Positions 675 through 22,971 of a stretch of 64,000 nt of DNA are shown here, piece by piece. The stretch comes from Myxococcota bacterium. Its GTDB lineage: Bacteria; Myxococcota_A; UBA9160; UBA6930. Location of the stretch: assembly GCA_965223705.1 (NCBI GenBank), contig OZ245015.1:3392001-3456000 (forward strand), given 5' to 3'. A model generated the notes under the pieces. It was given only the letters and a program-made list of their open reading frames with translations. It searched no databases and was not told the DNA's origin. The first letter of the stretch is position 1, and every line of letters starts with the position of its first letter. Both the position numbers and the translations under genes were made by a program.

Positions 675-1616
675 GTGGATCAGCTCGACCCAAACAAGCG
701 TCCGGAGGTCCCGGATCCGGAACCCCTGACCTTCGAGGCGGCCATCGGCCGAATCCTCGAACGGTTCCAAGAATGGGGGCAAGCGTTCATCGAGCTGCTC
801 CCGAACATCGTTGTTGCCGTGAGTGTCGTGGTGACGTTCGCGCTGATTGGACGTTTCGCCAGCTATCTCGTCCGCAGGGGACTGACGCGTGTCGCGCACA
901 ACGAACAGCTCGCTGCGCTGACGTCCGCCGCAACTCGCCTGACGTTCCTGGCGGTAGGTGTGTTGATCGGATTGGGCTTGCTCAATCTCGACAAAGCGCT
1001 CACTTCGCTCTTGGCCGGGGTCGGCATCGTCGGGCTCGCTCTGGGCTTCGCTTTCCAAGACATTGCAGCGAATTTCATGTCGGGCTCGATCATGGCCGTT
1101 CGTCAGCCTTTCGAGCTCGGCGACCTCGTCGAAACCCATGGATACCTGGGCACGGTCGAGCGGGTCAGCTTGCGGGCAACCGTGCTCCGCCTGTTCTCAG
1201 GGCAGGAAGTGATCCTTCCGAACAAGGACGTTCTTCAGAATCCGATTACGAACTACTCCCGCACGGGCGAGCGTCGGGTCGACATCGACCTGGGAGTCGC
1301 CTACGACTCCGATCTCGAGCGGGTTCGAGAAGTCGCGGTTTCGGCGATTGAGGGGATCGACTACCGGGACGTCGAGCGAGCACCCGAGTTTTACTACACC
1401 GAGTTCGGAGACAGCGCGGTCGGCCTCTCGGTACGCTTTTGGCTCGATCTAGCTTCCGACCATTCCAATTTTCTCGAAGCACGGTCCCGGGGGATCGAAG
1501 CCGTTCGTCGCGCGTTCGCGGATGCGGAGCTTGAAATACCGTTCCCGATTCGCACGGTCGAGCTCGGTCCGTCCACCGTGCCCGCCATCGAGGCGCTGTC
1601 CCACGGAAACGAGTGA
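675..1616 (+). CDS. Small-conductance mechanosensitive channel, MscS family
   Basis: Three TM segments, GLALGFAFQDIAANFMSG motif, PFELGDLV, and C-terminal IPFP. Confidence 0.92.
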   Translation: MDQLDPNKRPEVPDPEPLTFEAAIGRILERFQEWGQAFIELLPNIVVAVSVVVTFALIGRFASYLVRRGLTRVAHNEQLAALTSAATRLTFLAVGVLIGLGLLNLDKALTSLLAGVGIVGLALGFAFQDIAANFMSGSIMAVRQPFELGDLVETHGYLGTVERVSLRATVLRLFSGQEVILPNKDVLQNPITNYSRTGERRVDIDLGVAYDSDLERVREVAVSAIEGIDYRDVERAPEFYYTEFGDSAVGLSVRFWLDLASDHSNFLEARSRGIEAVRRAFADAELEIPFPIRTVELGPSTVPAIEALSHGNE

Positions 1617-1651
1617 TTGGAAACGCGCTCGAGAGAAAGACGTAGAGGCGA

Positions 1652-2056
1652 CTACCTCGACACGGAAAGGTTTGCGGTGCAGCGGACCTCCACGAGCAGC
1701 TCCGGAAAAGCCAAACCCGAGACTTGGAGCAGTGTGCTTGTCACAACGGGGTCACCTCCATAAGCTTCGCGCCGGACTTCCGTTGCGCAGGCGAGCGCCG
1801 CTTCCATGTCGGTGACGAACGTCATCTCGTCTACGACGTTGTCGAAGGCCGCCCCGTATTCCGCGAGCAGCCTTCCGACATTCGCGTAGGCCTGGCGCAT
1901 CTGGGCCGCCATGTCGCCGATACCGACGATCTCGCCGGCCTCATCGTGTGCGATCTGACCCGACAGGTGGAGCGTTTCGCCGACCCGGTTGGCCTGTACG
2001 TAGGGGTAGTCTTCCCAAGGTACGCCGAAGACTCGGGTGTCCTTTTCCAACTTCAT
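1652..2056 (-). CDS. RidA/YjgF/UK114 family protein
   Basis: YVQANRVGETLHLSGQ and STLLQVSGLAFPELLVEV motifs. Start ATG 2056 overlaps the GST stop (ATGA). Confidence 0.88.
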   Translation of the reverse strand: MKLEKDTRVFGVPWEDYPYVQANRVGETLHLSGQIAHDEAGEIVGIGDMAAQMRQAYANVGRLLAEYGAAFDNVVDEMTFVTDMEAALACATEVRREAYGGDPVVTSTLLQVSGLAFPELLVEVRCTANLSVSR

Positions 2057-2721
2057 GTCAACGACGCGAGTGCGGATTGGATATTGCTGACCCAGTCCTC
2101 GACGCTCGGTCGAGCCGACACCTTGTCGTGCCAACGCCGAATCGCCGGGTAGCCGTCCAGGCCCGGAAACTCGCCGAGGATTCCTAGATCGACAGCGCAG
2201 AGCGCCGTGATATCGGCGACCGTAAAGTTGTCGCAGGCGACAAACTCACTCTTTTCGAGCTGGTCCTCCAGCAAATCGTGGAAAGCTCGCATGCCGTTCT
2301 TCCCTCGCTCGACGAGATCGGGAATCTGCGCATCAATCCCTCGGCCGGGGTGCCCCCGGCCCGCGAACACCGGAACCTGGTTGCGGATGAAATCGCGGGC
2401 GGAGAGCATTCCGTCCTGATCGGCGCGGCGTTCCCAGCTTTCGACCAGGGCTTTTTCGACCGTCGTTCTCCCCATCAGCGGCGGATCCGGCTGCACTTCC
2501 TCGAAGTAGCGCCAGATGGCGGCGGCTTCGTCGATCCGCGTCCCGTCGTCGAGTTCGAGAACCGGAACGACCCCGCGCGGATTGATCGCCAGGAAATCGG
2601 GTTTGAGGTTCTCGCCGACAAGGATGTTGATCTCGACTTTCGGGACCTCGATCCCTTTCTCGTCGAGGAGAATCCGGACGCGACGCGGGTTCGGCGCGAT
2701 CAAGCAATCGTAGAGCTTCAT
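2053..2721 (-). CDS. Glutathione S-transferase family protein
   Basis: MKLYD..APNPRRVRI, INPRGVVPVLELDDG and FTVADIT motifs. Start adjusted to ATG 2721. Confidence 0.92.
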   Translation of the reverse strand: MKLYDCLIAPNPRRVRILLDEKGIEVPKVEINILVGENLKPDFLAINPRGVVPVLELDDGTRIDEAAAIWRYFEEVQPDPPLMGRTTVEKALVESWERRADQDGMLSARDFIRNQVPVFAGRGHPGRGIDAQIPDLVERGKNGMRAFHDLLEDQLEKSEFVACDNFTVADITALCAVDLGILGEFPGLDGYPAIRRWHDKVSARPSVEDWVSNIQSALASLT

Positions 2722-2728
2722 GGTCTTT

Positions 2729-2842
2729 TCAACTTTCTCTCGGGTAGGCCACGACTGCCGGATCGAAGCATTGGAGCATCTGCTCCACATCCATCGTGGC
2801 GTGAACTTTCTCGGCAAATGCGACGGTTTCTTCGGGTGTCAT
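2729..2842 (-). pseudogene. 37-aa ORF resembling a truncated SnoaL/NTF2-like N-terminus
   Basis: Strong RBS (GGGAGG, 4 nt before ATG 2842), then MTPEETVAFAEKVHATMDVEQMLQCFDPAVVAYPRES*. The DVEQMLQCFDPAVV segment resembles the NTF2 DxxxLxxxFxxDxV pattern. Confidence 0.5.
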
Positions 2843-2875
2843 GAAACCTCCCTGTCCCGCAAGCCTACCAGACAG

Positions 2876-3865
2876 CTACCGGCGATCGATGTCCCGCGTA
2901 TGCGGGGAGTCCGGCATCGAGCTCGGCCAATCGATCACAGCGCTTCGAATCGACGGGCGCTCGTAGAGGCGCGAGGCGTAGTCTTGAACCCGCGGACGAT
3001 CGGCCCACAGGGATGCGTGGCCCAACCACTCGACGCGGTAGAGACTCACACCCCAGAGACAATCCGCTAGGGTGAACTCACTGCCGACAACCCAAGGGCC
3101 CTGCGACTGCTCGAGTTCGGCGTCGAGCGCGGCGACGATCGTCTCGAACTCCTTGATAATTCCTTCCATCACGGCCGGGTCTTTTTGGATCCTCTTGCCC
3201 GCCATCTCTTTCGCGATCTTCGCGCGGTAGGCACGGACCAACTCGGGATCGTCCCGGTTCTCCTCGATGTGCGTCTCCAAGACAAGCCGCTTGCGGTCAT
3301 AGACGCCGTCCATCGCCTGAATCCAGAAGGACGGCCTCGGATCGTTAGCGTGGAAACCGTAGAGAATCCCCGGGTGTGGGATGCGGTCGTTGATCTCGAT
3401 CTGCCGACGAACGGCGGCGGCGCGATGGGCTTCTTCGGGTATCAGACGCGGCTTCGGAAGCGCCGCTTCGAGATGCTCGAGGATCTGCGCAGAATCGACG
3501 ACCGCACATTCTTGCTCTCGATCGACGAGGAGGGGCACCACGCACGCATCGAAGCCCTCGGTGGTGACTGAAGTTCGCATCGTGTGCGCTTCTGCCAGCC
3601 TGGAGGCCTGCTCGCCCGCTGCGAAGAGGCGAAGCCGAACGTAGCCGGGGCGGTAGTTCTCGGTCGGCTCGAGTTCGTGGGCGAGATAACCGACACCCTT
3701 TTCCGCGAGAGCCGTCCGAACTTTTTGCGAACAGATGGAGAAACCGAAGTGGTAGAGCTCGAACCGGGGTGACTCGTCCAGACAATCGCCGATGGTCGAG
3801 CTGCGACTCGGGTCGCGGAGCTCTGCGCGAGCGGCCGCCGTGAGCGCTTCGAACGTCTGGGTCAT
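2876..3865 (-). CDS. Atypical glutathione S-transferase (PcpC/LinD/GDAP1-like)
   Basis: LYHFGFSICSQKVRTALAEKG, ENYRPGYVRL, VVPLLV and GPWVVGSEFTLAD motifs. Start ATG 3865 overlaps the upstream stop. Confidence 0.82.
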   Translation of the reverse strand: MTQTFEALTAAARAELRDPSRSSTIGDCLDESPRFELYHFGFSICSQKVRTALAEKGVGYLAHELEPTENYRPGYVRLRLFAAGEQASRLAEAHTMRTSVTTEGFDACVVPLLVDREQECAVVDSAQILEHLEAALPKPRLIPEEAHRAAAVRRQIEINDRIPHPGILYGFHANDPRPSFWIQAMDGVYDRKRLVLETHIEENRDDPELVRAYRAKIAKEMAGKRIQKDPAVMEGIIKEFETIVAALDAELEQSQGPWVVGSEFTLADCLWGVSLYRVEWLGHASLWADRPRVQDYASRLYERPSIRSAVIDWPSSMPDSPHTRDIDRR

Positions 3866-4344
3866 GGATTCGGCAGCGGGAAGACGAGCTGCGCGGTGAT
3901 TCCGTCGAGCGACTTCTCGCCCTCCCCCGCGATCTCGAGCTCCGCAAAGCGGTAGAGGGATTCCTCGTGAACCACCATGGAATTCGCGAGTTCGCGGTAG
4001 CGAGCCGGAGCCTCGGCGGCGATGGCTCGGTACCGCTCGACGTAGGGAGCCAGACCGTCTCGGAGTGCCTCCATGGCCGCCAGCCACGTCTTCCCCTCGA
4101 AGACATCCCCCAGTTCGTGCCCGGTAGCGCGCGCCGACTCGGTTTCTGCGAGATCGAGACCGAGCTCTGCCATGGGAGGCCGAAGGCGCGCTTTGGTCTC
4201 CGTTTCGAGTTGGAGCATCACACCGATCTTGAAGCGGTGCGTTGGGTCATCGAACTGAGCGAGCATCCGGTTGAAAGCCACCTCGCCGATGACTTCCCCC
4301 TGATAGATTTCGATGAGCCCCTGAGAAAAATTGTCGGATGACAC
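3862..4344 (-). CDS. Hypothetical helical protein, possibly ferritin-like
   Basis: GGAG RBS before GTG 4344. All-helical pattern with spaced E/H residues (YQGEVIGE, LQLETET, VHEESL). Translationally coupled to the GST. Confidence 0.6.
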   Translation of the reverse strand: MSSDNFSQGLIEIYQGEVIGEVAFNRMLAQFDDPTHRFKIGVMLQLETETKARLRPPMAELGLDLAETESARATGHELGDVFEGKTWLAAMEALRDGLAPYVERYRAIAAEAPARYRELANSMVVHEESLYRFAELEIAGEGEKSLDGITAQLVFPLPNP

Positions 4345-4358
4345 GTTTGAGACTCCGG

Positions 4359-5510
4359 TCAGAGGAGGTGTTCTCGTTGCTGAATTCCGCGGTTTCGTCG
4401 GCTGGCGAGCTTTCGCCACTGCACGATGTTGGCGTCGGGCTCGAACAAACGTTCTTGCAACCACGCCTCGTCGTTGTAATAGAACTCTTGCTGAGCCTCT
4501 CTCGCCCAGATGTCGTCGTCGTTGAAGCCCGCTAGCGCGAGTTCGCGCCATTTTTCGTCGAACTCGCGGAAGAATGCGTCCGCTTCTTCTGCGTTGGCCA
4601 CGCGACGACCGAGGGTCGCTAGGTAGAAATGGTGATCCTCGTCGATGGGGACGTACCATTCGTACTGGACGAGCGAGGGATCGGGCCACGGGTTGACACG
4701 AAGGGCTCCGGGCAACCAGAGTGAGATGTCCATCGCGACTCGGGTCTGCCCCATGTGCCCGCAGCGGACGACTTCGCCGTCGAGGGTGCCTTCGAAGACC
4801 GGCTCCGAGTGTTCGCCGATCAGGTCGTAGACGCCCGCAGGACCCTCCTCTTCGTCGACGACACGAAACGCCTCCTTGCCGGTCGGGCTAAACCCGAGCG
4901 GGAGAGCGATGTCGTTGCCTTTGACGAGAACCGAATCTTTGTGAATGAAGACGTGGGTGCTGTCGAAGCCGTTTTCACAGCCAATGCGCCAGTTCGAAGC
5001 CACTTCTCGGCGCACCCCGCGAACGACCAGTTCCTCATCGAGAAATCCCGGCGGCACGTCACTCGAGAGCGGCGGTGGAGCGATGTCTCCCATAAACAGA
5101 AACACGAGCCCTTTGGCCTCCTGCGCCGGAAACGTGGGGATGCGCCTCCTACCGATCTGATTGCTGTTGGGCGAGGTCAGGATCGCGACGAGTTCTCCGG
5201 TCTCCATGCTGTAGGTAAATGCGTGATACCAGCAGGTAACCGTTCCCTTCTTGAAACACTCCGGCTTGCGCGAGAAGGGAACGCCGCGATGTGAGCAGCG
5301 ATCGCGAATCGCGTAGACGTGACCATCGACCCGGGTCATCAACACGCGATCGCCGAGGATGCGATGCGCGACGAACTCGCCCTCGCGAACCTCGTCGGAG
5401 AAGAGTGTCGGGTACCAATGATTGCGGAATCCGAGCTTCGCTTCGATGTACTCGGGGAATGCGGCGCACTTTCGCACGACGTCCGGATCGACCAAGGGCT
5501 CTCGTGTCAC
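4359..5510 (-). CDS. carAa: Rieske oxygenase, carbazole 1,9a-dioxygenase terminal oxygenase (CarAa)-like
   Basis: AKLGFRNHWYP, Rieske DRCSH...CWYH, ENGFDSTHVFIHKDS, GVYDLIGEH..PVFEGT, EWYVPIDE and GFNDDDIWARE match CarAa as I recall it along the whole length. About 383 aa from GTG 5510, with a GGAGG RBS. Confidence 0.85.
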   Translation of the reverse strand: MTREPLVDPDVVRKCAAFPEYIEAKLGFRNHWYPTLFSDEVREGEFVAHRILGDRVLMTRVDGHVYAIRDRCSHRGVPFSRKPECFKKGTVTCWYHAFTYSMETGELVAILTSPNSNQIGRRRIPTFPAQEAKGLVFLFMGDIAPPPLSSDVPPGFLDEELVVRGVRREVASNWRIGCENGFDSTHVFIHKDSVLVKGNDIALPLGFSPTGKEAFRVVDEEEGPAGVYDLIGEHSEPVFEGTLDGEVVRCGHMGQTRVAMDISLWLPGALRVNPWPDPSLVQYEWYVPIDEDHHFYLATLGRRVANAEEADAFFREFDEKWRELALAGFNDDDIWAREAQQEFYYNDEAWLQERLFEPDANIVQWRKLASRRNRGIQQREHLL

Positions 5511-5535
5511 AACCAACGCCTCCAAGGTTCGCGGG

Positions 5536-6360
5536 CTAGGAGATACCTCGCAGCTCACACCAGAGTTTCACGAGTCGCGTGAACTCCTCGTGCTGCTCGA
5601 TCATCGCCCAGTGACCGCAATGAGGAATGACGTGGAGCCAGGAATGCTCGAGGAGCTCGTGGAAGCGCCAAGCGAGTTCCTTCGGTACGACTTGATCATC
5701 GCTCCCGTTCACGAGCAAGGTGGGAGTCTTCACTTCGGCAATCGCGTCTTCGGGATAGAAGAGACCGCCCTGCTCGCCGATCCATTTCATCGTGGCGCCG
5801 TAGGCCGCCATAGCACCTGGCTGCTGAGTAAGTTCGTATCGGTAACGAACCAAGGTTTCGTCGATTTCGAAGCCGTCGGCCGTCAGCGTCTCGATAATCG
5901 TTCTCATATTCTCGAGAGTCGGCTGATAGCTCAAGATGGTGCGGATCGCGGGGGAGAGTTCGGAGTTGAGCCCGGCGCTTCCCATCAAGACCAAAGCGCG
6001 GAGACGCCCGGGTGCGTCCATCGCGACTCCCAGTGCCGTGCAGCCGCCCATCGAGTTGCCCACCAGAACCGGGGCCTCGAGAGAGAGCGCATCGAGGAAA
6101 CCCAGCAGATGCCGGTTGCGAGCGCTCTGATTGTATTCGAACGACGCCGGATCGGGTTTGTCGGTGTCACCGAAGCCGAGCATGTCGACGGCCAGCACCC
6201 GGTAGCGTTCTGCGAAGCTCGGAATGCAGGCGGACCAGTTGCCGCGGGCGTCCGCCCCTGCACCGCCGCCGTGGATCAACACGAGCGGTGTGCCGTTCCC
6301 CGCTTCTAGATAGTGGGTTTTTACTCCGTCGACTGCGATGTGCTGAGACTTTGCCGTCAC
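5536..6360 (-). CDS. carC: Meta-cleavage product C-C hydrolase, CarC-like
   Basis: LIHGGGAGA, GNSMGG nucleophile elbow, TMKWIGEQGGLFY and IPHCGHWAMIE match CarC as recalled. Adjacent to carAa. Start GTG 6360. Confidence 0.8.
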   Translation of the reverse strand: MTAKSQHIAVDGVKTHYLEAGNGTPLVLIHGGGAGADARGNWSACIPSFAERYRVLAVDMLGFGDTDKPDPASFEYNQSARNRHLLGFLDALSLEAPVLVGNSMGGCTALGVAMDAPGRLRALVLMGSAGLNSELSPAIRTILSYQPTLENMRTIIETLTADGFEIDETLVRYRYELTQQPGAMAAYGATMKWIGEQGGLFYPEDAIAEVKTPTLLVNGSDDQVVPKELAWRFHELLEHSWLHVIPHCGHWAMIEQHEEFTRLVKLWCELRGIS

Positions 6361-6435
6361 GGGCCCTCTCCTCTGACCGTATCGAACGGCGCGATTGTAC
6401 GCCGAGCGGGGAGCCGCTCGGCGGTATGCGTGCCC

Positions 6436-6481
6436 TATATTTGTAATTGACAATAATTGACTTCAAGCAAATACTCTATCC
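6436..6481. promoter_or_regulatory. AT-rich divergent promoter/operator between carC and marR
   Basis: TTGACA at 6447-6452, TAATTGAC direct repeat at 6444 and 6454 (10-bp period), and imperfect inverted repeat TTGACTTCAA. Confidence 0.55.
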
Positions 6482-6958
6482 ATGGCGCAAGATCCGTTGG
6501 TCGGCCTCGACTCACGGTTGGGCTTCTGGCTTCGCGAGGTCTCCAATCTCCTCCACGGGCGGTTTGCCGACGCACTCGCCGCGCGCGACGTGACACCGCC
6601 GCTCTGGGCAATCCTGATCACGCTGAAACGCGGCGAAGCCGACGCTCCCGCGGCTTTGGCGCGGCGTCTCGACGCCGACCCTGCGGCGATGACTCGACGG
6701 CTCGACCAACTCGAAGCCAAGGGTTTGATCCGCCGACGCCGAAGCACCGAGGATCGTCGATGTGTCGGTATTCAACTCACCGAGCAAGGTGAGGCACTCG
6801 TTCCCGAGTTGGCGGACATCTCATCGCGGCTCACGGACGACGCGCTGGACGGGGTCTCCGAGGGAGAGCGGACGCGGCTGCTTCGCGCACTGCGACGCAT
6901 GCACCAGAATCTGAAGGACCTGAAAGGCGACGCCGGCGCGGAACAGGCGTCGGCGTAG
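6482..6958 (+). CDS. MarR family transcriptional regulator
   Basis: wHTH with LEAKGLIRR..STEDRR..IQLTEQG. Confidence 0.93.
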   Translation: MAQDPLVGLDSRLGFWLREVSNLLHGRFADALAARDVTPPLWAILITLKRGEADAPAALARRLDADPAAMTRRLDQLEAKGLIRRRRSTEDRRCVGIQLTEQGEALVPELADISSRLTDDALDGVSEGERTRLLRALRRMHQNLKDLKGDAGAEQASA

Positions 6959-6988
6959 GAAACGATCGAAAACGAAAGGGGATGAGAG

Positions 6989-7891
6989 ATGAGCACAGCA
7001 ATCACGGGTCTCGGCTATCTCGGCATCCAGTCGCCGCGCGCTGAGGCGTGGCGAGACTACGGTCCGAAAGCGCTCGGCATGCAGTGCGCCGAGGGAGCCG
7101 AGGGCGATGTCGTACGCCTGCGCGTCGACGATCGTGCGCACCGCCTGGCGATCCACCCGGGTGAGCCCGAGGGCATCGCCTATAGCGGCTGGGAGCTTCC
7201 CAACGCGGAGTCGTTCGCGCTCGCTGCGGAGCAGGTCGAGAAAGCCGGGGTTGCAATCGCTGCAGCGACACCTTCAGAGCTCGCGACGCGCCGCGTGCGC
7301 GCCATGGTGCACTTCCGCGACCCCGACGGTTTTCGACACGAGCTCTTCTACGGACAAGAGGGAAAGGCTCGCTCTTTCCATCCCGGGCGACCGCACTCCG
7401 GTTTTGTCACCGGAGAGCGTGGCCTGGGTCACCTCGCCCTGGGCGTTCGGGATCTCGAAGCAGCCCGGCGGTTCTATCTCGACGTGCTGGGCTTCTCTGT
7501 GAGCGACGAGATGGATGCGCACTTTCGCATCCTGTTCTTCCATACAAATCCGCGTCACCACAGTGTGGCCGTGGTCGAAGTCCCCAACCCGGGCCTTTTC
7601 CACCTGATGCTGCAAGTCGAATCGCTAGACGATGTAGGCTTTGCCCTCGATGGGTGCGAAGCGTTGGAAATTCCGATTCGCCGCACACTCGGCCGCCACC
7701 CCAATGACCGCACCGTGTCGTGCTATCTCGGAACTCCGTCGGGTTTTGATATCGAATACGGCTGGGGATCGATCGATGTCGTACCGGGCGAGCACGTCAC
7801 CACGGTAGAAAAAACGGCGTCGATGTGGGGACACAAGCAGCTGACATCCTCTTCCTGCCTCCCGCCTCTCGAACCGACCCACGACCGCTAG
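6989..7891 (+). CDS. Type I (VOC) extradiol dioxygenase, BphC/HsaC family
   Basis: LGYLGI, LRVDDR, GLGHLAL, FFHTNPRHHS, FHLML, LGRHPND and TPSGFDIEYGWG, giving the Fe(II) His-His-Glu ligands. Confidence 0.92.
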   Translation: MSTAITGLGYLGIQSPRAEAWRDYGPKALGMQCAEGAEGDVVRLRVDDRAHRLAIHPGEPEGIAYSGWELPNAESFALAAEQVEKAGVAIAAATPSELATRRVRAMVHFRDPDGFRHELFYGQEGKARSFHPGRPHSGFVTGERGLGHLALGVRDLEAARRFYLDVLGFSVSDEMDAHFRILFFHTNPRHHSVAVVEVPNPGLFHLMLQVESLDDVGFALDGCEALEIPIRRTLGRHPNDRTVSCYLGTPSGFDIEYGWGSIDVVPGEHVTTVEKTASMWGHKQLTSSSCLPPLEPTHDR

Positions 7892-7899
7892 GAGCCCTC

Positions 7900-8760
7900 A
7901 TGGCGAACACCATCTGGCAAGACCTCGAAAACGTCCGCTTTACCCAGCGCTTCATCGACGCCAAAGGGGTCCGCACCCGCGTCCTCGAAACCGGCGAACG
8001 CGGCATGCCGGTACTCTTCTTGCTCCCTGGGCAAACGGGGCACCTCGAGGCGTACGTCCGGAACGTGGGCCCGCTCGGCCAGCACTTCCATACCTTTGCC
8101 ATCGATCCGATCGGCTGCGGTTTCAGTGACAAGCCGAAAACGCCGTACCTCATCGCCGACTACGTCGAGCACCTGATCAACGTGATGGATGTCGAGGGCA
8201 TCGAGAAGGCCCATTTCTCCGGCGAATCGAACGGCGGATGGACGGCGCTCCGTCTTGCGACCAGCCACCCCGATCGCGCCGACAAGCTCGTCCTCAATAC
8301 CTGCGGCGGCTACAACTGGGACGAGAACCTTTTTAAGCGCATCCGCGAGCTTACGATCCCCGCCGTCATGAATGGAAACCGCGACGAGGTGCGCGCAAGG
8401 CTTGAGTGGCTCATGGAGGACAAGTCCAAGGTCACCGAAGAACTAGTGGACGTTCGCATGCGGATCTACGCGATGCCTGAGTTTCGCGAGAACGTGGAAC
8501 GCATGCTCGATGTTCAGGTCCCCGAGATTCGCAAAAACATCCGCATCACCGATGAGGAGCTTCGCAACACGCGTCACGAATCACTCGTCCTATGGACGGT
8601 CCACGATCCCACGGCGCCGACCACGGTCGCCGACAAGATGGCCGATCTTCTCCCGAACTCGAAGAAAGTGATTCTCGAAGGCGCCGGCCACTGGCCGCAG
8701 TGGGAAATCGTCGACGACTTTAATCGGGTCCACATCGATTTCCTGCAAGGTCGACTCTAG
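7900..8760 (+). CDS. Alpha/beta hydrolase, MhpC/BphD-like C-C hydrolase family
   Basis: GESNGG elbow, WTVHDP and AGHWPQWE motifs. GGAG RBS before ATG 7900. Confidence 0.85.
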   Translation: MANTIWQDLENVRFTQRFIDAKGVRTRVLETGERGMPVLFLLPGQTGHLEAYVRNVGPLGQHFHTFAIDPIGCGFSDKPKTPYLIADYVEHLINVMDVEGIEKAHFSGESNGGWTALRLATSHPDRADKLVLNTCGGYNWDENLFKRIRELTIPAVMNGNRDEVRARLEWLMEDKSKVTEELVDVRMRIYAMPEFRENVERMLDVQVPEIRKNIRITDEELRNTRHESLVLWTVHDPTAPTTVADKMADLLPNSKKVILEGAGHWPQWEIVDDFNRVHIDFLQGRL

Positions 8761-8828
8761 GACTTGCGACCCCGGGTCGCGCACAGATTTGGAGCTCGTG
8801 CGATCCAGTTTTCCCCGATGGAACGAGA

Positions 8829-10478
8829 CTAGGCCGGTTCGAGAACGTAACTCCCGGGGGCCTTGTCGAGGACTGGATGTCTCGAACTTCCGAGCTCCGC
8901 CGGCGCGGGGACGGTCTCGCCAGAGCGGGCGAGGATCCAGTCGGCCCACAGCTCCCACCAGGTACCTGTGCAACGCTCGGCGGCTCGCAACCAGGCATCG
9001 GGGTCGTCCCCGGGCTCGGGCCCGGCGTAATAGTGCGCCTTCGGGTTACCCGGCGGGTTGACCACGCTCGCGACATGTCCCGCGTGGCTGAGCACAAACT
9101 CACCACGACCGTTCAAGAGCTGGGTCGTGCGATAGGCGCCGCGCCAAGGAGTAATGTGGTCGTTGATCCCCGCGCTGACAAAGTGATCGACCTCGATGCT
9201 GCGCAGGTCGATCGGTTTCCCCAGTACTGAAAAAGCTCCCGCCGCGAGCAGGTTGTCGTTGAAGACGTCGACGAAGTCGTTGTGGAGACCGGCGGGCAGG
9301 TTCGTGCTGTCCGAGTTCCAATAGAGAATGTCGAAGGCGGGTGGCGTCTTGCCCATCAAGTAGTTGTTGACCCAGTAGTTCCACACCAACTCGTTGGGCC
9401 GGAGCCACGAGAACACCTGAGCGAGATTCTCTCCCGGTAGAATGCCGCGACGCTCGGAGATCGACTTCGCCAGAGGACCCGCCGTCGGATGGGCGAACAT
9501 CCCCATCATCGTGGGTTCTTCCCAATCGATCTGTGTCACGGTAAACGAGGCTGCGGCGACCCGGCGGTCGCCCTTCGTCGCCTGATAGGCGAGCATCGCC
9601 GCCGTCGTGATCCCGCCGGCGCAGACCCCGAGCGTCAGGAGGTCGTCGCTCCCCGTGATTTCGCACACCACATCGATCGCCTCCAGAAGCGCTTCGATGT
9701 AGGTGTCGAGTGTCCAAGCAGCGTGCTCGGGCCCTGGATTGCGCCAGCTTACGGTGAAGAACGCGATGCCGCGACTCACCGCGTACTCCGTGAGACTGCG
9801 TCCCGGCGCGAGATCCAGGAAGTAGTACTTGTTGATTTGAGGGGGCACGAGCAGTGTGGGCCGGGCACCCACGGTGGGCGTCGCAGGTTGGTACTGAATC
9901 AACTCCACGAGTTCGGAGCGGAACACAACGGCACCGGGAGTCACCGCGAGGTCTTTGCCTACCTCGAAGCGACTGCGGTCGACCTGCCCCGGCATCCCGC
10001 CGTTTCGAAGCAGGTCATCCGCCCAGTTGCGGAAGCCGCGGAGAGCGCTCAAGCCTCCGCTGTCGATCATCTCCTTGATCGCCGAGGGATTGGTGAGGAG
10101 CTGGTTGGTCGGAGCGGCGGCTGCCGCGAGTAGCTCGGCCGCGAACTTCGCGCGTTCGATATCGCGCCAGTCGTCCCCGCTGTCATCGATCGAGCCCGCC
10201 AGCGCATCGGCCCAAGCGAGGTAGCTCTGGGCGAGTCGGCGGGCCATCGGGTTGCTCGACCAGGCGGGGTCCTGAAAGCGCCAGTCGCGTGGATCGGGCG
10301 CCCGCTCGCTGTCGCCAAAGGTGATGTCCCAAAGCTCGCGCTGGAGCTCGAGGGTTTGGCGAACGAGCCGGGTGGGATCGATCAGACGGGCCGCTGCCGC
10401 CAGGGTCTCGGCGGCGTCCATCGGGTAGACCGGCGCGAACGGCGGATCGTTGACGGGACGACGCGGTCGCTTTGTCAT
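8829..10478 (-). CDS. phaC: Poly(3-hydroxyalkanoate) synthase, class I/II-like
   Basis: LAVTPGAVV, PPQINKYYFLDL, GVCAGG lipase box with Cys, WLRPNELVWNYWVNNYLMG, DHITPW and GHVA. GGAGG RBS before ATG 10478. Confidence 0.92.
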   Translation of the reverse strand: MTKRPRRPVNDPPFAPVYPMDAAETLAAAARLIDPTRLVRQTLELQRELWDITFGDSERAPDPRDWRFQDPAWSSNPMARRLAQSYLAWADALAGSIDDSGDDWRDIERAKFAAELLAAAAAPTNQLLTNPSAIKEMIDSGGLSALRGFRNWADDLLRNGGMPGQVDRSRFEVGKDLAVTPGAVVFRSELVELIQYQPATPTVGARPTLLVPPQINKYYFLDLAPGRSLTEYAVSRGIAFFTVSWRNPGPEHAAWTLDTYIEALLEAIDVVCEITGSDDLLTLGVCAGGITTAAMLAYQATKGDRRVAAASFTVTQIDWEEPTMMGMFAHPTAGPLAKSISERRGILPGENLAQVFSWLRPNELVWNYWVNNYLMGKTPPAFDILYWNSDSTNLPAGLHNDFVDVFNDNLLAAGAFSVLGKPIDLRSIEVDHFVSAGINDHITPWRGAYRTTQLLNGRGEFVLSHAGHVASVVNPPGNPKAHYYAGPEPGDDPDAWLRAAERCTGTWWELWADWILARSGETVPAPAELGSSRHPVLDKAPGSYVLEPA

Positions 10479-10559
10479 AGGTGTCCTCCGGGCGCACGGC
10501 CCAGGGTCATGATAGGCGACGAGCGGTCGCACCCTCGCGGTCGACTTTGGGGAGAAACG

Positions 10560-16925: not shown

Positions 16926-18092
16926 GTGGCGCTTGCGACGCCGATTCACCTCGCCTCTTCCTCCAGTCCATTCGATGAGCGGCGTTTCGAGACGCTGCTC
17001 CGAACGATCGAAGAGCGGCGCGACGACTTCCATCGCGCGCGACACGTCAGCCAGGACATCATCGAAGAGCTTCGGACGTTGGGCCTTTATCGCGCGTTCG
17101 TACCGGAACAGTTCGGCGGTTCCGGCATGGCCCCGACGGACTTCTTGCAGCTGATCGAACGCATCGCGTGTGCCGACGGTTCCGCGGGTTGGGTCGCGAG
17201 CTTCGCTTTCGCGTCGAAGTATCTCGCATCGCTGCCCGCCGAAACCCTCCGCGAGCTTTACGCGGAAGGGCCGGACGTCGTCTTTGCAGGTTGTGTCTTT
17301 CCTCCCCAGCCGGCGCGACGCGTCGAGGGCGGGTTCGTGGTGCGCGGGCGGTGGCCCTTCGCGAGCGGTTGCAACGGTGCGTCGATCCTCGGCGTCGGCA
17401 TTCTCTCAGACTCCGAGAATGACGGAGGCCTGCCCAGGATGGCGGTCATGCCCGCCGAGAAAGCCGAGATCGACGAAACGTGGAATGCGGTGGGCATGCG
17501 TGGAACAGGCAGCCACGATCTGATCGTCGAGGACGTGTTCGTTCCCGACGCCTGGACGTTCGTCCGTGGCTCGCCGCCGACTCTCGACACCGCCGCGTAC
17601 CGTTATCCGACGCTCGCGATGGCCTCGCAGGTCCTCGCCGTGTGCGGCTTGGGCGTTGCGCGAGCCGCTCTAGAGTACGTGATAGGCGATGCGGCAAGCG
17701 CGCCTTCGATCACCGGTGCCCCATCGATCGCAGATCGTCCACACGCGCACCTGAGAATCGGGGAAATGGAGGCATCGCTCCGTTCGGCCCGCGCGTGGTT
17801 CTACGAAGTCACCGATAGTGCCTGGGCCGCACTTCTGGACGGAGGTTCAGCGTCGCAGGAGCAGACGGTCGACCTACGGCTCGCTTCGACCCACGCGGCC
17901 CGAGTCGGCGCCCAGGTCGCGCGCGGTTGTTACGAGGTGTGCGGAACGATCGGAATCTACGAACACAGTCCGTTGTCGCGTTACGTCGCCGACGCGTCCG
18001 TCGTCGCGCAGCACGCGTTTATCGCCGAGGGGTCGTTTCTGTCCGCGGGGAAGATCCTCGCGGGCCACGCACCTGCGCCGGGATTTCCATAA
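16926..18092 (+). CDS. iacA: Indole-3-acetate monooxygenase IacA (acyl-CoA dehydrogenase fold, group D flavin monooxygenase)
   Basis: ADGSAGWVASF, GRWPFASGC, GMRGTGSHD and VVAQHAF motifs. First gene of the iacA-B-I-C-D-E array. Confidence 0.85.
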   Translation: MALATPIHLASSSSPFDERRFETLLRTIEERRDDFHRARHVSQDIIEELRTLGLYRAFVPEQFGGSGMAPTDFLQLIERIACADGSAGWVASFAFASKYLASLPAETLRELYAEGPDVVFAGCVFPPQPARRVEGGFVVRGRWPFASGCNGASILGVGILSDSENDGGLPRMAVMPAEKAEIDETWNAVGMRGTGSHDLIVEDVFVPDAWTFVRGSPPTLDTAAYRYPTLAMASQVLAVCGLGVARAALEYVIGDAASAPSITGAPSIADRPHAHLRIGEMEASLRSARAWFYEVTDSAWAALLDGGSASQEQTVDLRLASTHAARVGAQVARGCYEVCGTIGIYEHSPLSRYVADASVVAQHAFIAEGSFLSAGKILAGHAPAPGFP

Positions 18093-18109
18093 CCATCCGG
18101 GAGGCCAAC

Positions 18110-18469
18110 GTGGCCGAGACCATTCGCACTCTTTTTTGCATCACCGTCGGTCAGAACTTCTTCGACCTGCCGGCCGACGAGACGGGCGCGGTATGGCAGG
18201 CCGTGGGTGACATGATGGGCGGCCTCGCAGCACTCCCCGGAGTTGAGATCATCGGCACGCTCGACGATGACGAGACGATGGTCGGTCGCTCTGTCGCGGG
18301 ATTTCCCACGGCCTACGTTCTCGCCGACGTGCCCGACCGCGAGACCGTGAGCGCCGCGTGCAACCTGTTTCGCACGACTCCGGTCGGCGAAAGCGAGCAT
18401 CGGCTATGGAAGTACTTGTCCGTGGAGGCTCGAATGGGCCGGCCGCTCGTTCCTCCGCCTCCCCGATGA
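18110..18469 (+). CDS. iacB: IacB protein
   Basis: RTLFCITVGQNFFD, GTLDDDETMVG, YVLADVPD, AACNLFRTTPVG and LWKY..VEARMGR match IacB as recalled. GGGAGG RBS before GTG 18110. Confidence 0.85.
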   Translation: MAETIRTLFCITVGQNFFDLPADETGAVWQAVGDMMGGLAALPGVEIIGTLDDDETMVGRSVAGFPTAYVLADVPDRETVSAACNLFRTTPVGESEHRLWKYLSVEARMGRPLVPPPPR

Positions 18470-19008
18470 GCGGGGCCCGCGATGATCGGGAGCTGCGCGA
18501 GCGCGTCGCGGCGCTCGAAGGAGAGAGCCAGTGCCGACGCACGCTCTCTCGCTACATGGAGCTCTGCGACAGCCTGGACGCCACAACCGATATGGTTGAG
18601 CTCGGTGAGCTCTTTTGCGAAGACGCGGTCTGGGAAGGGCGCGGCGGGAAATACGGCGATGCGTTCGGGGGTCATCGGGGGCGCCGCACCATCGTCGCGT
18701 TCCTCAACAGCTATCGAGAGCCAGAGGCCCACTTTGAGAGCAACGCCCATTTCTTGACGAGCGAGCAGATCGAGGTTCGCGGCCCGCGCGCTCACGGTAG
18801 CTGGGTGATGCTGCAAACACCGACGTTCCGGGACGGGTCTTCTTTTCTTCTCGCCGCACGACTGCGCGTAGCTTTTCGCCGAGATTCCGACGCGTGGCGC
18901 ATCGAACGCTTCTCGACGACGAACTTGTTTTCGCGCCCGATCGAGGGCGGCTGGGAACTCGAGGCCGCGCTGCCGGTACCGATGCGTACGTCGAAAGGGA
19001 ACGAATGA
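18466..19008 (+). CDS. iacI: SnoaL/NTF2-like protein IacI
   Basis: RYMELCD, ELFCEDAVWEG and NAHFLTSEQI. Lies between iacB and iacC with ATGA overlaps. Confidence 0.78.
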   Translation: MSGARDDRELRERVAALEGESQCRRTLSRYMELCDSLDATTDMVELGELFCEDAVWEGRGGKYGDAFGGHRGRRTIVAFLNSYREPEAHFESNAHFLTSEQIEVRGPRAHGSWVMLQTPTFRDGSSFLLAARLRVAFRRDSDAWRIERFSTTNLFSRPIEGGWELEAALPVPMRTSKGNE

Positions 19009-20246
19009 CCGATACGAGAGACCTCTTCCGAGACGATCGCGCTCATACTTCTCTGTACACGGACCCCGAAATCTTCGAGTCGGAGATGGAACGGATCTTC
19101 TATCGCACGTGGGTATGGGTCGCGCACGAATCGGAGATCCCGAATCCCGGCGACTATCTGACGACCCACGTCGGGCTGCAGCCCGTGATCGTGAGTCGCG
19201 ACCGCAGCGGCGAACTCCACGTGCTCGTGAATCGTTGCCGGCACCGCTCCGCCGCCTTGTGCGAAGCTCGGCTGGGAAGTGCGAAGAACTTTCCCTGCCC
19301 GTACCACGGTTGGGTGTACAGCTTGGACGGCGCACTGCGAGGCGTGCCCTATCCCGAAAGCTACGGGCCCGACTTCAAAAAAGAGGACTATCCGCTCCTT
19401 TCACTTCGCGTGGAGACCTACGCGGGCCTCATTTTCGCGACGTTCACCCACGACGGAGAGTCGCTCCGGGACTTTCTCGGGGACGCAGCCGGCTGGCTCG
19501 ATCTCTTCATGAAGCAAGGCGCCGGGTTCCCGATCAAGGTTGCGGGCGAGCACCGCTTCCGCTTTCCAGGCAACTGGAAGATCCAGCTTGAGAACACCAC
19601 AGACGCCTATCACTTTCCCGTCGTCCATCGATCGTTTCTCGATTCTCTCGACGAGCAGACGGAAGATCTGTTTTCGTTTCTCCGCGGAGACGGCTACGTC
19701 CGGAGCCTCGGAAACGGTCACAGTGTGATGGTGATGATCCCGGAACTCGTCGACCTCGAAGCGAACCTCGATGCGCCGATTCCCGATCGCTTCGATTCTC
19801 TCGCCAACGCGCTCCGTCGCGAACACGGGGAAGACGACGTCCGAAGGATTGTGCGCGCGGTCGGAGGAACGGGGTTCAACCTGAACTTGTTCCCGAACTT
19901 GGCGTGCTCCCTCTCGTTCTTTCGGGTGCTGCGTCCGATCTCCGTGTGCGAAACCGAGATTCGACACGTGGCACTCGGGATGGACGGTGGGCCGGAAGCT
20001 GCGAACCAAACCAGGCTTCGGCTTCACGAACACTTCCAAGGACCGATGGGGTTCGGAACAACGGATGACGCCGAGGTGTGGGACCGCGTCCAACGAGGCG
20101 CCCAGGGCGGGCCCGATCTCTGGATCCTTCTGAACCGCGGGCGAGACGTCGCCGAGGCGGGTCGACGCGGTGCGCAAGGCGACGTCAGCGCGGAAACGGG
20201 TATGCGCGCGGCGTACCGGATGTGGCAGCGGATGATGGTTTCGTGA
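19005..20246 (+). CDS. iacC: Aromatic ring-hydroxylating dioxygenase alpha subunit IacC
   Basis: NRCRH...CPYHGW Rieske motif, NWKIQLENTTDAYHFPVVH, and RLRLHEHFQGPMGFG..DDAE. Confidence 0.87.
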   Translation: MTDTRDLFRDDRAHTSLYTDPEIFESEMERIFYRTWVWVAHESEIPNPGDYLTTHVGLQPVIVSRDRSGELHVLVNRCRHRSAALCEARLGSAKNFPCPYHGWVYSLDGALRGVPYPESYGPDFKKEDYPLLSLRVETYAGLIFATFTHDGESLRDFLGDAAGWLDLFMKQGAGFPIKVAGEHRFRFPGNWKIQLENTTDAYHFPVVHRSFLDSLDEQTEDLFSFLRGDGYVRSLGNGHSVMVMIPELVDLEANLDAPIPDRFDSLANALRREHGEDDVRRIVRAVGGTGFNLNLFPNLACSLSFFRVLRPISVCETEIRHVALGMDGGPEAANQTRLRLHEHFQGPMGFGTTDDAEVWDRVQRGAQGGPDLWILLNRGRDVAEAGRRGAQGDVSAETGMRAAYRMWQRMMVS

Positions 20247-20722
20247 GCCGCGCGATTGCACTGGAGGAAGCCGCGGCTTTCGTGTGGCGCGAGGCAGATC
20301 TTCTGGACCGCCGGGCTTACGAAGAGTGGCTCGAGTTGTGGGCTCCCGAAGGCCTTTACATCGTTCCGACCGACACCGAAGCAAAAGATCACGCAAACTC
20401 CCTCAACTACATCTACGACGACGCAGACATGCGGCGCATGCGTGTTGCGCGATTGCAGTCCCCGCATTCTGCTGCGGCGAGCTCTGCTGCGACGACCGTA
20501 CGTACGGTCTCGCGCTTCGTTGCGACGAGCGGAGGGGGCGAAACCCTGTCGGTCCGCGCGTCACAGCTTCTCGCAGAGTACAGTGGCGGGCATCATGCGC
20601 TTCGGCCGGCGAACCTCGAGCTCGAATTTCGCCGCGACGGTGATCGACTCCTCTACACCCGGAAAATCGTCAAGTTGCTCGGCGGCGAAGACGGCCTGAC
20701 CGGGATCGCTTACCTCCTCTGA
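20243..20722 (+). CDS. iacD: Ring-hydroxylating dioxygenase beta subunit IacD
   Basis: FVWREADLLD..YEEWLELW, LNYIYDD..MR.MRV.RL and TVRTVSRF. GTGA overlap with iacC. Confidence 0.85.
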   Translation: MSRAIALEEAAAFVWREADLLDRRAYEEWLELWAPEGLYIVPTDTEAKDHANSLNYIYDDADMRRMRVARLQSPHSAAASSAATTVRTVSRFVATSGGGETLSVRASQLLAEYSGGHHALRPANLELEFRRDGDRLLYTRKIVKLLGGEDGLTGIAYLL

Positions 20723-21465
20723 TGAGTGCCTCCGTCTGCATCGTCACGGGCGCCGGACGCGGCCTCGGGCGGGTGATTGCCAGGCACCTGCATCGCCAAG
20801 GCCACCGGGTCATCGTCACGGATATCGATGCGGTCCGTGCGGAAGCGCTCGCCGCGGAACTCGACCGAAGCGGCGCGACGGCGCTCGGATTGCGCCTCGA
20901 CGTTCGCGAGAAACATGACTTCGAAGACGCGCTCGAACGTGCGAGCGAGGTCTTCGGGGAGGTCTCTGCGCTGATCAACAACGCTGCGGTGACCCACGCG
21001 ACGCCGCTTTTTGACATTTCCCCGGACGAGTTCGAGGAAGTTCTCCGCGTCAATCTGCGAGGCGTGTTTCTCGGGTGCCAGGTCTTCGGAGCTCAGTTCG
21101 CGAAAGCGGGCTTTGGTCGCATCGTCAACCTCGCCTCGCTCGCGGGACAAGCCGGAGGCACGGCGACCGGCGCCCACTACGCCGCTTCCAAAGGTGGGAT
21201 CCTCACGCTGACAAAGATCTTCGCGCGAGAACTCGCCTCTTCGGGCGTCACCGTGAACGCGATCGCGCCCGGTCCTCTCGACGTTCCTCTCGTGCACGAG
21301 CTGCTTTCCTCCGACACGGTCGAAGCGCTGAAGCGAGCCATTCCGGTGGGTCACCTCGGCGACCCCGAGTTCATCGCACAAGTCGTCGCGTTGCTCGTAT
21401 CGAGCGAAGCCCGTTCCGTCACCGGAGCGACCTGGGATGCGAACGGAGGCCTCTACTTGCGATGA
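20722..21465 (+). CDS. iacE: Short-chain dehydrogenase IacE
   Basis: TGAGRGLG, NNAA and HYAASKGG motifs, plus iac context. Confidence 0.83.
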   Translation: MSASVCIVTGAGRGLGRVIARHLHRQGHRVIVTDIDAVRAEALAAELDRSGATALGLRLDVREKHDFEDALERASEVFGEVSALINNAAVTHATPLFDISPDEFEEVLRVNLRGVFLGCQVFGAQFAKAGFGRIVNLASLAGQAGGTATGAHYAASKGGILTLTKIFARELASSGVTVNAIAPGPLDVPLVHELLSSDTVEALKRAIPVGHLGDPEFIAQVVALLVSSEARSVTGATWDANGGLYLR

Positions 21466-21956
21466 GGTTCCGCGAGCCGACCGATGCGGCCTTCGACCTC
21501 CGAAACTGGCCGTTTTACTGGATCACGCGGACGAGCGACCGCTATTTGAGCGTACTCGAAGGCAACTTGAAGGAGAGCGGACTCGATATACCGAGTTGGC
21601 GCGTCCTTGGACAACTTCACGGAACGCTTTCGAAGAGCGTCGGTGAACTGGCCGACGAGGCGATTATCAAGCGATCGACGATGGCACGCATGATTCACCG
21701 AATGGAAGATGAAGGCCTCGTCGAAACCCGCGTGCGTCCGTCGGACCAGCGCGTGACGGAGGTCCGACTGACCGCGTTCGGAAAAAGGCAGCGTATCGTC
21801 GCTCAGCGACAGGCCTTCCGCGCGTTCGCGCGGGCCTTTCGAGGCGTGAGCGAGGGCGAGATCCATCGACTGAACGACACCCTCCGCAAGGTGTTCGCAA
21901 ACTTCGAATCGGAAGACGTCAAAGACCGACCGCAAACCCGTTCGAAAGAGGAATGA
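21462..21956 (+). CDS. MarR family regulator (IacR-like)
   Basis: FDLRNWPFYW, LDIPSWRVL, RMEDEGLV and DQRVTEVRLT. Start ATG 21462 overlaps the iacE stop. Confidence 0.85.
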   Translation: MRFREPTDAAFDLRNWPFYWITRTSDRYLSVLEGNLKESGLDIPSWRVLGQLHGTLSKSVGELADEAIIKRSTMARMIHRMEDEGLVETRVRPSDQRVTEVRLTAFGKRQRIVAQRQAFRAFARAFRGVSEGEIHRLNDTLRKVFANFESEDVKDRPQTRSKEE

Positions 21957-21957
21957 A

Positions 21958-22971
21958 ATGCTGCACACGCCGTTTTGCCAGACGCTCGGCATCGACCATC
22001 CGGTGATGTGTGCCCCACTGGGAGGAGGCAACGCCGGGCCCGAACTCGCGGCCGCCGTATCCAATGCGGGCGGACTCGGCTTCCTCGGTCTGGGTGGCCT
22101 ACCCGCCCCTGTGATTCGGGAGCTCATTCGGGATACCCGCGGCCGCACCTCGAAGCCGTTCGGCGCCGGGCTTCTTTTGCCGCTCCTTCAAGGGGGCGAG
22201 ATCGAAGCGTGCATTGAGGAAGGTGTCTCGGCGCTTCTCCTCTTTTGGGGCGACGCGGCGCCGTATGTCGACGACGCGAAGCGTTCGGGCATCCCGGTGT
22301 TTTCGCAAGTGGGCTCCGCAAAGGAAGCGCGTGAAGCCGTTTCCGCAGGCGTTGATGTCGTTGTGGCGCAGGGGTTTGAAGCCGGTGGACACGTACGCGG
22401 CACGACGTCTCTTTCGACGCTGGTCCCGGCCGTCGTCGAAGCCGTTGGCGACGTGCCGGTTGTGGCGGCCGGTGGCATCGCAGACGGGCGCGGGCTGGTC
22501 GCGGCTCTCGCTCTCGGGGCACAGGCGGTCTCTCTGGGAACCCGCTTCCTTGCGAGCGAGGAGTCACGGGCCTCCGCCGACTACAAGGAGCGGATTCTAG
22601 ATGCGCGTTCGGAAGACACCGTACACACCCTTCTTTTTGACATCGGCTGGCCCGATGCCGCGCATCGCGTGCTTCGCAACAAGGCTATCGAAGAGTGGGA
22701 AGCGGCGGGGCGACCGCCCGTGGGCCAGCGCCCTGGCGAAGGCTCGAGCATCGGCAAGATGCCGGTGGGAGGCGCGCTGACCGAGATCCCTCGCTACGCC
22801 GTATTCAATCCGATGGCGGGTTTCGAGGGCGACATCGAGTACGCGGCACTCTACGCCGGAGAGTCCACTAACCTGATCACGGAGCTCAAGCCCGCTGCGT
22901 CCATCGTCGAAGATCTCGTCGCCGAAGCGAAGACCGTGCTCCGGGAGCTGACACGGAGAGAACGCCGATGA
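21958..22971 (+). CDS. Nitronate monooxygenase / FabK-like FMN TIM-barrel oxidoreductase
   Basis: LAAAVSNAGGLG, QGFEAGGH, AAGGIADGRG and GTRFLAS. Confidence 0.88.
   Translation: MLHTPFCQTLGIDHPVMCAPLGGGNAGPELAAAVSNAGGLGFLGLGGLPAPVIRELIRDTRGRTSKPFGAGLLLPLLQGGEIEACIEEGVSALLLFWGDAAPYVDDAKRSGIPVFSQVGSAKEAREAVSAGVDVVVAQGFEAGGHVRGTTSLSTLVPAVVEAVGDVPVVAAGGIADGRGLVAALALGAQAVSLGTRFLASEESRASADYKERILDARSEDTVHTLLFDIGWPDAAHRVLRNKAIEEWEAAGRPPVGQRPGEGSSIGKMPVGGALTEIPRYAVFNPMAGFEGDIEYAALYAGESTNLITELKPAASIVEDLVAEAKTVLRELTRRERR

Follow-up and report, generated by a model that had tools for sequence, protein, structure and literature searches.

The stretch of DNA considered here, called the window, comprises 64,000 nt of contig OZ245015.1 (GCA_965223705.1) from a Myxococcota bacterium, and positions within it are given in window coordinates. 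It contains a carbazole-type (car) locus of five genes arranged in two divergent halves. On the reverse strand lie carAa (4359-5510; 383 aa), which encodes a homotrimeric Rieske oxygenase of the carbazole 1,9a-dioxygenase (CARDO) type, and carC (5536-6360; 274 aa), which encodes a meta-cleavage product hydrolase of the CarC/DxnB type. On the forward strand follow a marR-family regulator gene (6482-6958; 158 aa, PF01047), the gene of a two-domain VOC extradiol dioxygenase of the BphC type (6989-7891; 300 aa), and the gene of a second, MhpC/FlnE-like C-C hydrolase, hereafter hydrolase 2 (7900-8760; 286 aa). The halves are separated by a divergent intergenic region of 121 bp (6361-6481) between carC and marR; the other gaps measure 25 nt (carAa/carC), 30 nt (marR/VOC gene), and 8 nt (VOC gene/hydrolase 2 gene). 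A preliminary description of this DNA had read the locus as carC-carAa diverging from marR, a VOC dioxygenase gene, and a second C-C hydrolase gene. The open reading frame check of the window recovered all five frames, open and at the same coordinates, and their identities held.

The locus is a real, intact car-type upper-pathway gene set. A single contig spans positions 1600-10500 in three of the four runs of one sample, with 0-3 differences, so the carC/marR junction is not an assembly error; the sample is probably the source sample, and its contigs exclude an assembly join but provide no independent support. Misassembly or decay of the genes might have been suspected because neither of the two same-genus genomes (75% and 87% complete) contains carAa, nor do 400 other genomes sampled from the phylum. 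It is extremely improbable, however, as the whole stretch lies on one contig in those three runs, the reading frames are all open with their catalytic residues intact, and the GC content of the locus is the same as that of its surroundings. With one of 401 genomes sampled from the phylum carrying carAa, and one of 33 from the family carrying a close form of it, the gene is regarded as accessory here. RecA of this genome is 85% identical to that of its kin, versus 67% to that of a gammaproteobacterial genome.

In profile searches CarAa carries PF11723 (304 bits) and the Rieske domain PF00355. Among solved structures, the CARDO oxygenases are its best matches (458-509 bits, E 1e-150 to 1e-136), with OxoO behind them (314 bits, E 1e-92). 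The protein shares 55% identity with CarAa of Pseudomonas resinovorans CA10 (pCAR1) and 58% with that of Novosphingobium sp. KA1 (pCAR3), and these two share 58% with each other. Its metal ligands are the same as theirs and all intact, both those of the Rieske center (C72, H74, C93, H96) and those of the catalytic iron (H186, H190, D333). The pocket is also almost the same. In CA10 it is presumably formed by G178, I184, A259, I262, L270, V272, F275, Q282, E284, F329, N330, and I334, and only I184V and F275W (CA10 numbering) distinguish the enzyme of the window. Three of these pocket residues are named in the literature on CARDO (PMC9939785). V184 is also found in KA1 CarAa, and W275 in CarAa of Neptuniibacter CAR-SF and of the OC strains, as well as in the best PDB match. 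W275 was considered as a mark of altered specificity and discarded, because 110 of 119 homologues have tryptophan there and cultured degraders have it too.

In a tree of 122 CarAa rows, built by a quick method with six near-duplicate or partial rows omitted and OxoO not included, the protein falls into a group of 65 rows (support 99) that holds no row from a cultured strain. This group sits between the CA10/KA1/CAR-SF group and the OC-strain group, the deeper forks having support values of 87-93 and no star. A CarAa relative from Cycloclasticus (cluster P0072) branches close to this clade. The placement of the oxygenase inside the CarAa clade, as required by the reading in the preliminary description, is borne out both by the scores, in which CARDO beats OxoO, and by its nesting among the CarAa of cultured degraders in the tree without OxoO. 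On sequence grounds the oxygenase is a true CarAa, and angular dioxygenation of carbazole is predicted from orthology. CarC, in turn, is 52% identical to both CA10 CarC and KA1 CarC and 44% to DxnB of Rhizorhabdus (Sphingomonas) wittichii RW1, is closer to CarC than to BphD, HsaD, or MhpC, and has 1j1i as its best PDB match (E 8e-82). Its motif positions predict a triad of S103, D222, and H250, and its closest relative (87%) bears the source label "Myxococcales bacterium".

The VOC protein is of the BphC type by profile, sequence, and fold. Its predicted two-domain fold superimposes on BphC structures with template modelling (TM) scores of 0.85-0.88, and it scores 244 bits against the HsaC model, whose cut-off is 450. 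Six residues (H148, H205, E256, H191, H237, and Y246) are invariant in 24 of 24 aligned relatives; we take them to be a His-His-Glu metal site with a second shell of two histidines and a tyrosine. The closest relative (83%) again carries the label "Myxococcales bacterium". The nearest named enzyme is BphC of the Rhodococcus WAY2/HA99 biphenyl cluster (45-47%, same starred clade), whereas RW1 DbfB (35-37%) lies far away in the tree. Hydrolase 2 reaches only 27-28% identity to CarC and does not belong to the CarC/DxnB type, which rules it out as a carC duplicate. It shares 39% with the hydrolase of the Rhodococcus p52 angular-dioxygenase cluster, presumably FlnE, and the genes of its relatives at 44-48% are located either in clusters of the mhp type or next to genes for Rieske and VOC proteins.

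Characterized car pathways rely on the LigAB-type CarBaBb for ring cleavage, as in CA10 and KA1. In this genome, which is 95% complete, CarBa and CarBb of these two strains have no tblastn match at E<1e-3, and relaxing the search to E 10 gave chance-level matches only; the same queries match canonical loci at 37-60%. A genome search with PF07746 was empty and carries no weight, as its control also found nothing. The genome encodes four LigB-family proteins, namely HpaD (above cut-off), a DOPA-dioxygenase-like protein, and one adjacent pair that is presumably aminophenol-dioxygenase-like. The absence of carBaBb stated in the preliminary description therefore holds genome-wide and, as the LigB-family proteins are of other kinds, the VOC enzyme is left as the main option for ring cleavage.

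Neither carAc nor carAd is present in the cluster, as had been claimed; candidates do exist elsewhere in the genome. A motif scan of small proteins revealed one stand-alone Rieske ferredoxin (C1:2413983), 44% identical to CA10 CarAc, and one GR-type and several FNR-type reductases are also encoded outside the locus. Scattered electron carriers of this kind are compatible with known class IIB or III chains, according to the accessible part of PMC8251347. The lack of these genes from a cluster is not a novelty and was set aside as such, since car clusters without carAc or carAd are already known from CAR-SF, Erythrobacter KY5, and KA1 (PMC6256505, and the accessible parts of PMC10992316, PMC2848856, and bioRxiv 2020.03.30.015693).

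As to the lower pathway, queries with mhpF/carF (acetaldehyde dehydrogenase) and dmpG (4-hydroxy-2-oxovalerate aldolase) found nothing in the genome, and hydratase matches reach 23-31% only; the five-carbon product is consequently left without a canonical route. Two AndAc/NagG-like oxygenases, both below the AndAc cut-off, are encoded elsewhere in the genome and could take the aromatic product. AndAc-like genes also occur near carAa in the relatives L008, L011, and L048. For the anthraniloyl-CoA route, a crude genome scan with a motif gave no candidate. The genome also contains a full reductive dehalogenase of 732 aa (C1:2773491-2775689), above the TIGR02486 cut-off, which adjoins genes for an intradiol dioxygenase and a multicomponent phenol hydroxylase-like enzyme.

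The closest precedent is Thalassococcus sp. S3, a cultured marine carbazole degrader whose cluster, carBEFDAcCAa(ORF)carAd, has a BphC-related CarB that replaces the usual enzyme (Vejarano et al. 2019, PMC6624753). The strain has been shown to remove carbazole, and the role of CarB is proposed from genome annotation (PMC6624753). As in S3 (Caulobacteridae-type II), carC directly precedes carAa here and a BphC-type dioxygenase is encoded instead of CarBaBb. S3 has carEFD, carAc, and carAd in its cluster, all absent from the cluster here, and it has an anthraniloyl-CoA route for anthranilate; unlike in S3, the VOC gene of the window is divergent behind marR and is followed by a second hydrolase gene. 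S3 protein sequences were not among the listed matches or clusters of the locus proteins. The "new architecture" announced in the preliminary description does not stand, as S3 already combines carC-carAa with a BphC-like CarB instead of CarBaBb. CA10 and KA1 have carAc beside carBaBb, and CA10 also carAd, none of which occurs in the cluster here. CAR-SF and KY5 share with it a cluster without a ferredoxin gene, and in CAR-SF the reductase gene is missing too; unlike here, both keep carBaBb.

The car cleavage enzyme of Sphingomonas CB3 is likewise of the VOC type. Its car cluster is described as bph-like in the accessible part of a review (PMC10992316). Strain RW1 pairs its angular dioxygenation with an extradiol enzyme of the VOC type and with hydrolases resembling CarC (PMC3425912, accessible part). 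Its dibenzofuran pathway (DxnA1A2, DbfB, DxnB/DxnB2) is similar to the present locus in these three components and in its scattered electron carriers; the RW1 oxygenase, however, is a two-subunit alpha/beta enzyme, whereas CarAa here is of the homotrimeric type. The nearest named BphC, that of Rhodococcus WAY2/HA99, belongs to a bph cluster of R04 type (PMC7276702, accessible part), where it follows a biphenyl dioxygenase of the lateral, alpha/beta kind and a dehydrogenase instead of CarAa. The carbazole degraders tabulated in the review, in its accessible part, belong to proteobacterial and actinobacterial genera only (PMC10992316).

Whether a VOC gene accompanies carAa elsewhere was assessed on 55 loci fetched by carAa similarity, of which 49 match at 53% or more and six were dropped. 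Within 4 kb of carAa, 19 of the 49 have carBaBb, seven a VOC gene, none both, and 23 neither, one of these last having carBb at 4.1 kb. When only the 26 loci flanked by 4 kb or more at each end are considered, the corresponding counts are eight, five, zero, and 13. Duplicates and close kin are included, so the counts are not independent. The gene orders differ: carC-VOC-gntR-carAa in L020, carAa-hydrolase-VOC in L022 and L023, and VOC-lipocalin-carAa in L015 and L017-L019. The VOC gene of L016 has a large internal deletion. Across groups, the carAa-adjacent VOC enzymes are 31-43% identical and do not form one clade. A single dedicated family of "VOC-type CarB" was rejected, with p-AU 1e-28 for the nine VOC rows held together; this approximately unbiased test used 39 of 62 rows and a simpler model, and its group (the carAa-adjacent VOC enzymes and their closest kin) was set by neighbourhood after the tree had been seen. 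The pattern points to repeated recruitment. In 25 whole genomes, a CarBb orthologue (46-58%) is present in seven, all with canonical loci; the remainder have distant LigB matches only (28-37%; 14 genomes) or none (four genomes).

The many carAa loci without either partner also bear on another explanation, namely that the uncultured CarAa clade has shifted to natural substrates, such as diaryl amines or ethers and halogenated or indole-derived heterocycles, with car-like partners being optional and the oxygenase product falling apart or being processed without cleavage of a biphenyl-diol. Within 4 kb of carAa, 17 of the 25 loci of the window's clade are without carBaBb and without a VOC gene, and an adjacent carC is missing from most. 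Members of this clade (L008, L010, L015-L019, L055) stand beside genes for PrnB-like, pyridoxal-dependent decarboxylase, flavin amine oxidase, and lipocalin-like proteins, hinting at tryptophan- or indole-derived substrates, and a reductive-dehalogenase-like neighbour occurs as well. The genome itself is devoid of a canonical lower meta pathway and has the full reductive dehalogenase. Such a shift is nevertheless distinctly unlikely: the pocket residues match those found in carbazole degraders in culture, carC still adjoins carAa in this genome and in the relatives closest to it, three loci of the clade (L051-L053, near-duplicates) have carBaBb, and many loci have short flanks.

The intergenic region provides information on control. 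A near-palindromic motif at 6437-6453, in the AT-rich part near marR, occurs once in the large contig and is found again upstream of the marR orthologue in another genome. A sigma70-like site (6447-6475) faces marR and overlaps this motif; with one site found against 1.2 expected by chance it is not significant by count, and the promoter search of the region found none facing carC. The overlap of the two elements, and the sharing of the motif by two marR genes, suggests autoregulation of marR, with the motif as a putative operator. A hairpin with 10-bp arms at 6400-6423 was examined as a repeat or junction mark and rejected, as it is single-copy in the large contig. In one other genome, a marR orthologue (64-67%) lies directly upstream of a hydrolase 2 orthologue. 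MarR most likely represses marR-VOC-hydrolase 2, and its control may also reach the divergent carC promoter. Regulators of the AraC and IclR types are known for car operons; a literature search for MarR control of a car operon gave none among the matches listed, a weak negative because most subscription papers lay outside the search. KA1 has the GntR-type CarR (PMC2848856, accessible part), which this cluster does not have; the genome contains no match to KA1 CarR or to the GntR of L008, though close relatives have GntR.

The order was surveyed in 193 genomes, and this genome and G460 are the only ones with close orthologues of carAa, carC, the VOC gene, and hydrolase 2 (79%, 79%, 69%, and 93% in G460, respectively); the other matches are oxygenase paralogues at 39-42% in three genomes and VOC genes at 48-49% in two. 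The survey scored 10-13 candidates per genome, and marR was checked in five genomes only. G460, which has the same contigs as G033, also holds the marR orthologue and thus all five genes, and has no CarBb.

Several observations weigh against the idea that the VOC enzyme serves CarAa. The VOC protein scores 274 bits against the BphC model TIGR03213, below the equivalog cut-off of 366, and the genome holds three further BphC-type genes. Neither partner is found at the 23 of 49 carAa loci, or 13 of 26 with full flanks, mentioned above, and the scattered VOC neighbours also fit a loose clustering of aromatic genes. In G460 the locus genes are spread over three contigs: carAa has its own divergent GntR gene, marR directly adjoins hydrolase 2, and the VOC gene stands beside a glutathione S-transferase gene. 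At 70% identity or more, G460 shares at least 13 of the 54 other genes of window positions 1-60000, compared with four of the five locus genes; with 40 candidates scored, the first figure is a lower bound. As so many unrelated genes are shared, the co-occurrence lends only modest support. The closest carC-carAa pair (L043, 85-87%) has no marR-VOC; its DNA similarity to the window ends at the carC start, and a reductive-dehalogenase-like gene lies upstream instead. The carC/marR junction is, in fact, not kept in any of the nearest relatives (L043, L008/L071, G460), and for this reason MarR control of carC-carAa and its use of this particular VOC enzyme can only be inferred. The gene upstream of the L043 pair (L043:2-682) is a fragment and directly precedes carC-carAa.

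The unconserved junction would also fit a rival reading, that of chance neighbours in an accessory island. The marR-VOC-hydrolase 2 genes would then be a self-contained cassette for another catechol, of the phenylpropionate or carboxy-biphenyl type, beside which carC-carAa landed after loss of its GntR gene, using another VOC enzyme or being part of an incomplete pathway. The operator-like shared motif belongs to marR, the sole promoter found faces marR, the relatives of hydrolase 2 lie in mhp-type clusters, and the flanking genes form a mosaic, parts of which recur in G459 and G460. Such an origin is a real possibility, if not the favoured one. Against it stand the recurrence of all five genes in G460 and in no other of the 193 genomes (with marR checked in the five noted), the four unrelated VOC lineages that adjoin carAa and never alongside carBaBb, and the grouping of this VOC enzyme with a biphenyl-diol enzyme; even then, cleavage would most likely still fall to a VOC enzyme.

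The replacement of CarBaBb by the VOC enzyme is retained as the most likely reading. We assign a probability of about 0.55 to the proposal that this enzyme performs the meta-cleavage and that the locus is the upper pathway for a carbazole-shaped tricycle. The proposal draws on the orthology of CarAa and CarC and their intact residues, on the genome without CarBaBb, on the grouping of the VOC enzyme with a biphenyl-cluster BphC, and on the published S3 precedent. It further draws on the seven of 49 loci with a VOC gene beside carAa and never with carBaBb, on the arrangement in L020, on the co-occurrence in G460, and on the AndAc-like genes near carAa in three relatives and twice elsewhere in this genome. 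The non-orthologous replacement of the meta-cleavage step put forward in the preliminary description is upheld to this extent, the link between the divergent halves being the part that the nearest relatives do not conserve.

The upper pathway would have been put together from two recently joined pieces. By orthology, CarAa would carry out dioxygenation at the angular position, yielding a product that opens to a 2'-substituted biphenyl-2,3-diol. Electrons would come from elsewhere in the genome, in the simplest case from the Rieske ferredoxin at C1:2413983 and a reductase of the GR or FNR type. The adjacent VOC enzyme would cleave the diol in place of CarBaBb, as proposed for CarB in S3, and hydrolysis of the cleavage product by CarC would release a five-carbon dienoate together with anthranilate, or with salicylate in the case of a dibenzofuran-like substrate. 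The aromatic half could continue through the AndAc/NagG-like oxygenases, the five-carbon half having no canonical route. Hydrolase 2 may broaden the set of cleavage products that can be processed, or it may act in the breakdown of a different VOC substrate.

Other genes surround the locus. A hypothetical protein gene (3862-4344, reverse strand; 160 aa) begins 14 nt behind carAa and is not kept beside it in relatives. Its product probably has a ferritin-like fold and has one paralogue in the genome; its nearest named Atlas clusters are ferritin, COQ7, and rubrerythrin at 0.86-0.87, which is a lead only, and a search with a 146-aa part found no Pfam family. Further downstream of carAa and in the same direction lie two glutathione S-transferase genes and a Rid-family gene (1652-3865, reverse strand). 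They are probably a separate accessory cassette; both transferase genes are found side by side in G459, which has no car genes. Another aromatic or heterocycle cluster, separate from the car locus, lies at window positions 16926-24122 and encodes a flavin monooxygenase, a SnoaL protein, an alpha/beta Rieske oxygenase, a short-chain dehydrogenase, a MarR protein, a nitronate monooxygenase-like protein, and a second flavin monooxygenase.

Elsewhere in the genome, a second cluster (C1:3729903-3742896; L035, L036) includes two distant homotrimeric Rieske oxygenases, 36-42% identical to CarAa and with different pocket residues, together with a hydrolase-2-like gene, a VOC dioxygenase, an M20 amidohydrolase, amidases, and hydantoinase-like genes. 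Its oxygenases are common to both same-genus genomes, gammaproteobacterial genomes (L132, L158) have a comparable gene set, and the cluster looks like an N-heterocycle pathway. Many gammaproteobacterial genomes (L106-L116) pair a CarC-like hydrolase (48-50%) with a second homotrimeric Rieske paralogue (38-42%), not with carAa, often just upstream of an adenosylhomocysteinase-like gene. A further cluster at C1:1844024-1849839 (G000, this genome) is common with G460 at 71-93% protein identity and corresponds to L155:10-5658; we take it to encode a soluble di-iron monooxygenase with a GroEL-like chaperone.

With respect to novelty, the exchange of CarBaBb for a VOC enzyme (S3) and ferredoxin-less clusters (CAR-SF, KY5) are known already. 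New are the lineage in which the locus occurs, its divergent cassette of marR, VOC gene, and hydrolase gene, and the indication that VOC enzymes were recruited repeatedly across an uncultured branch of CarAa. The chances are slightly better than even that the locus works like the S3 cluster; it does not belong to the canonical car operon type. A broader synthesis, offered tentatively and unlikely as a whole, would be that the wholly uncultured CarAa branch (the 65 rows with support 99) has mostly shed carBaBb and gained unrelated BphC-type enzymes at least four times. In this lineage, which lies outside the known carbazole users, the cluster would then act on naturally occurring tricycles, halogenated or derived from indole, and not on carbazole of fossil origin. 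Its partners would be a reductive dehalogenase and a shortened lower pathway in which the anthranilate half, with its carbon and nitrogen, is retained and the five-carbon half is given up. With this locus it could be tested directly whether an enzyme of the BphC type is able to take over from CarBaBb, and it opens a way towards the substrate that angular dioxygenases use in nature. Since the exchange recurs with unrelated VOC enzymes, screens based on carBaBb markers would overlook a large part of the CarAa family among bacteria that have not been cultured.

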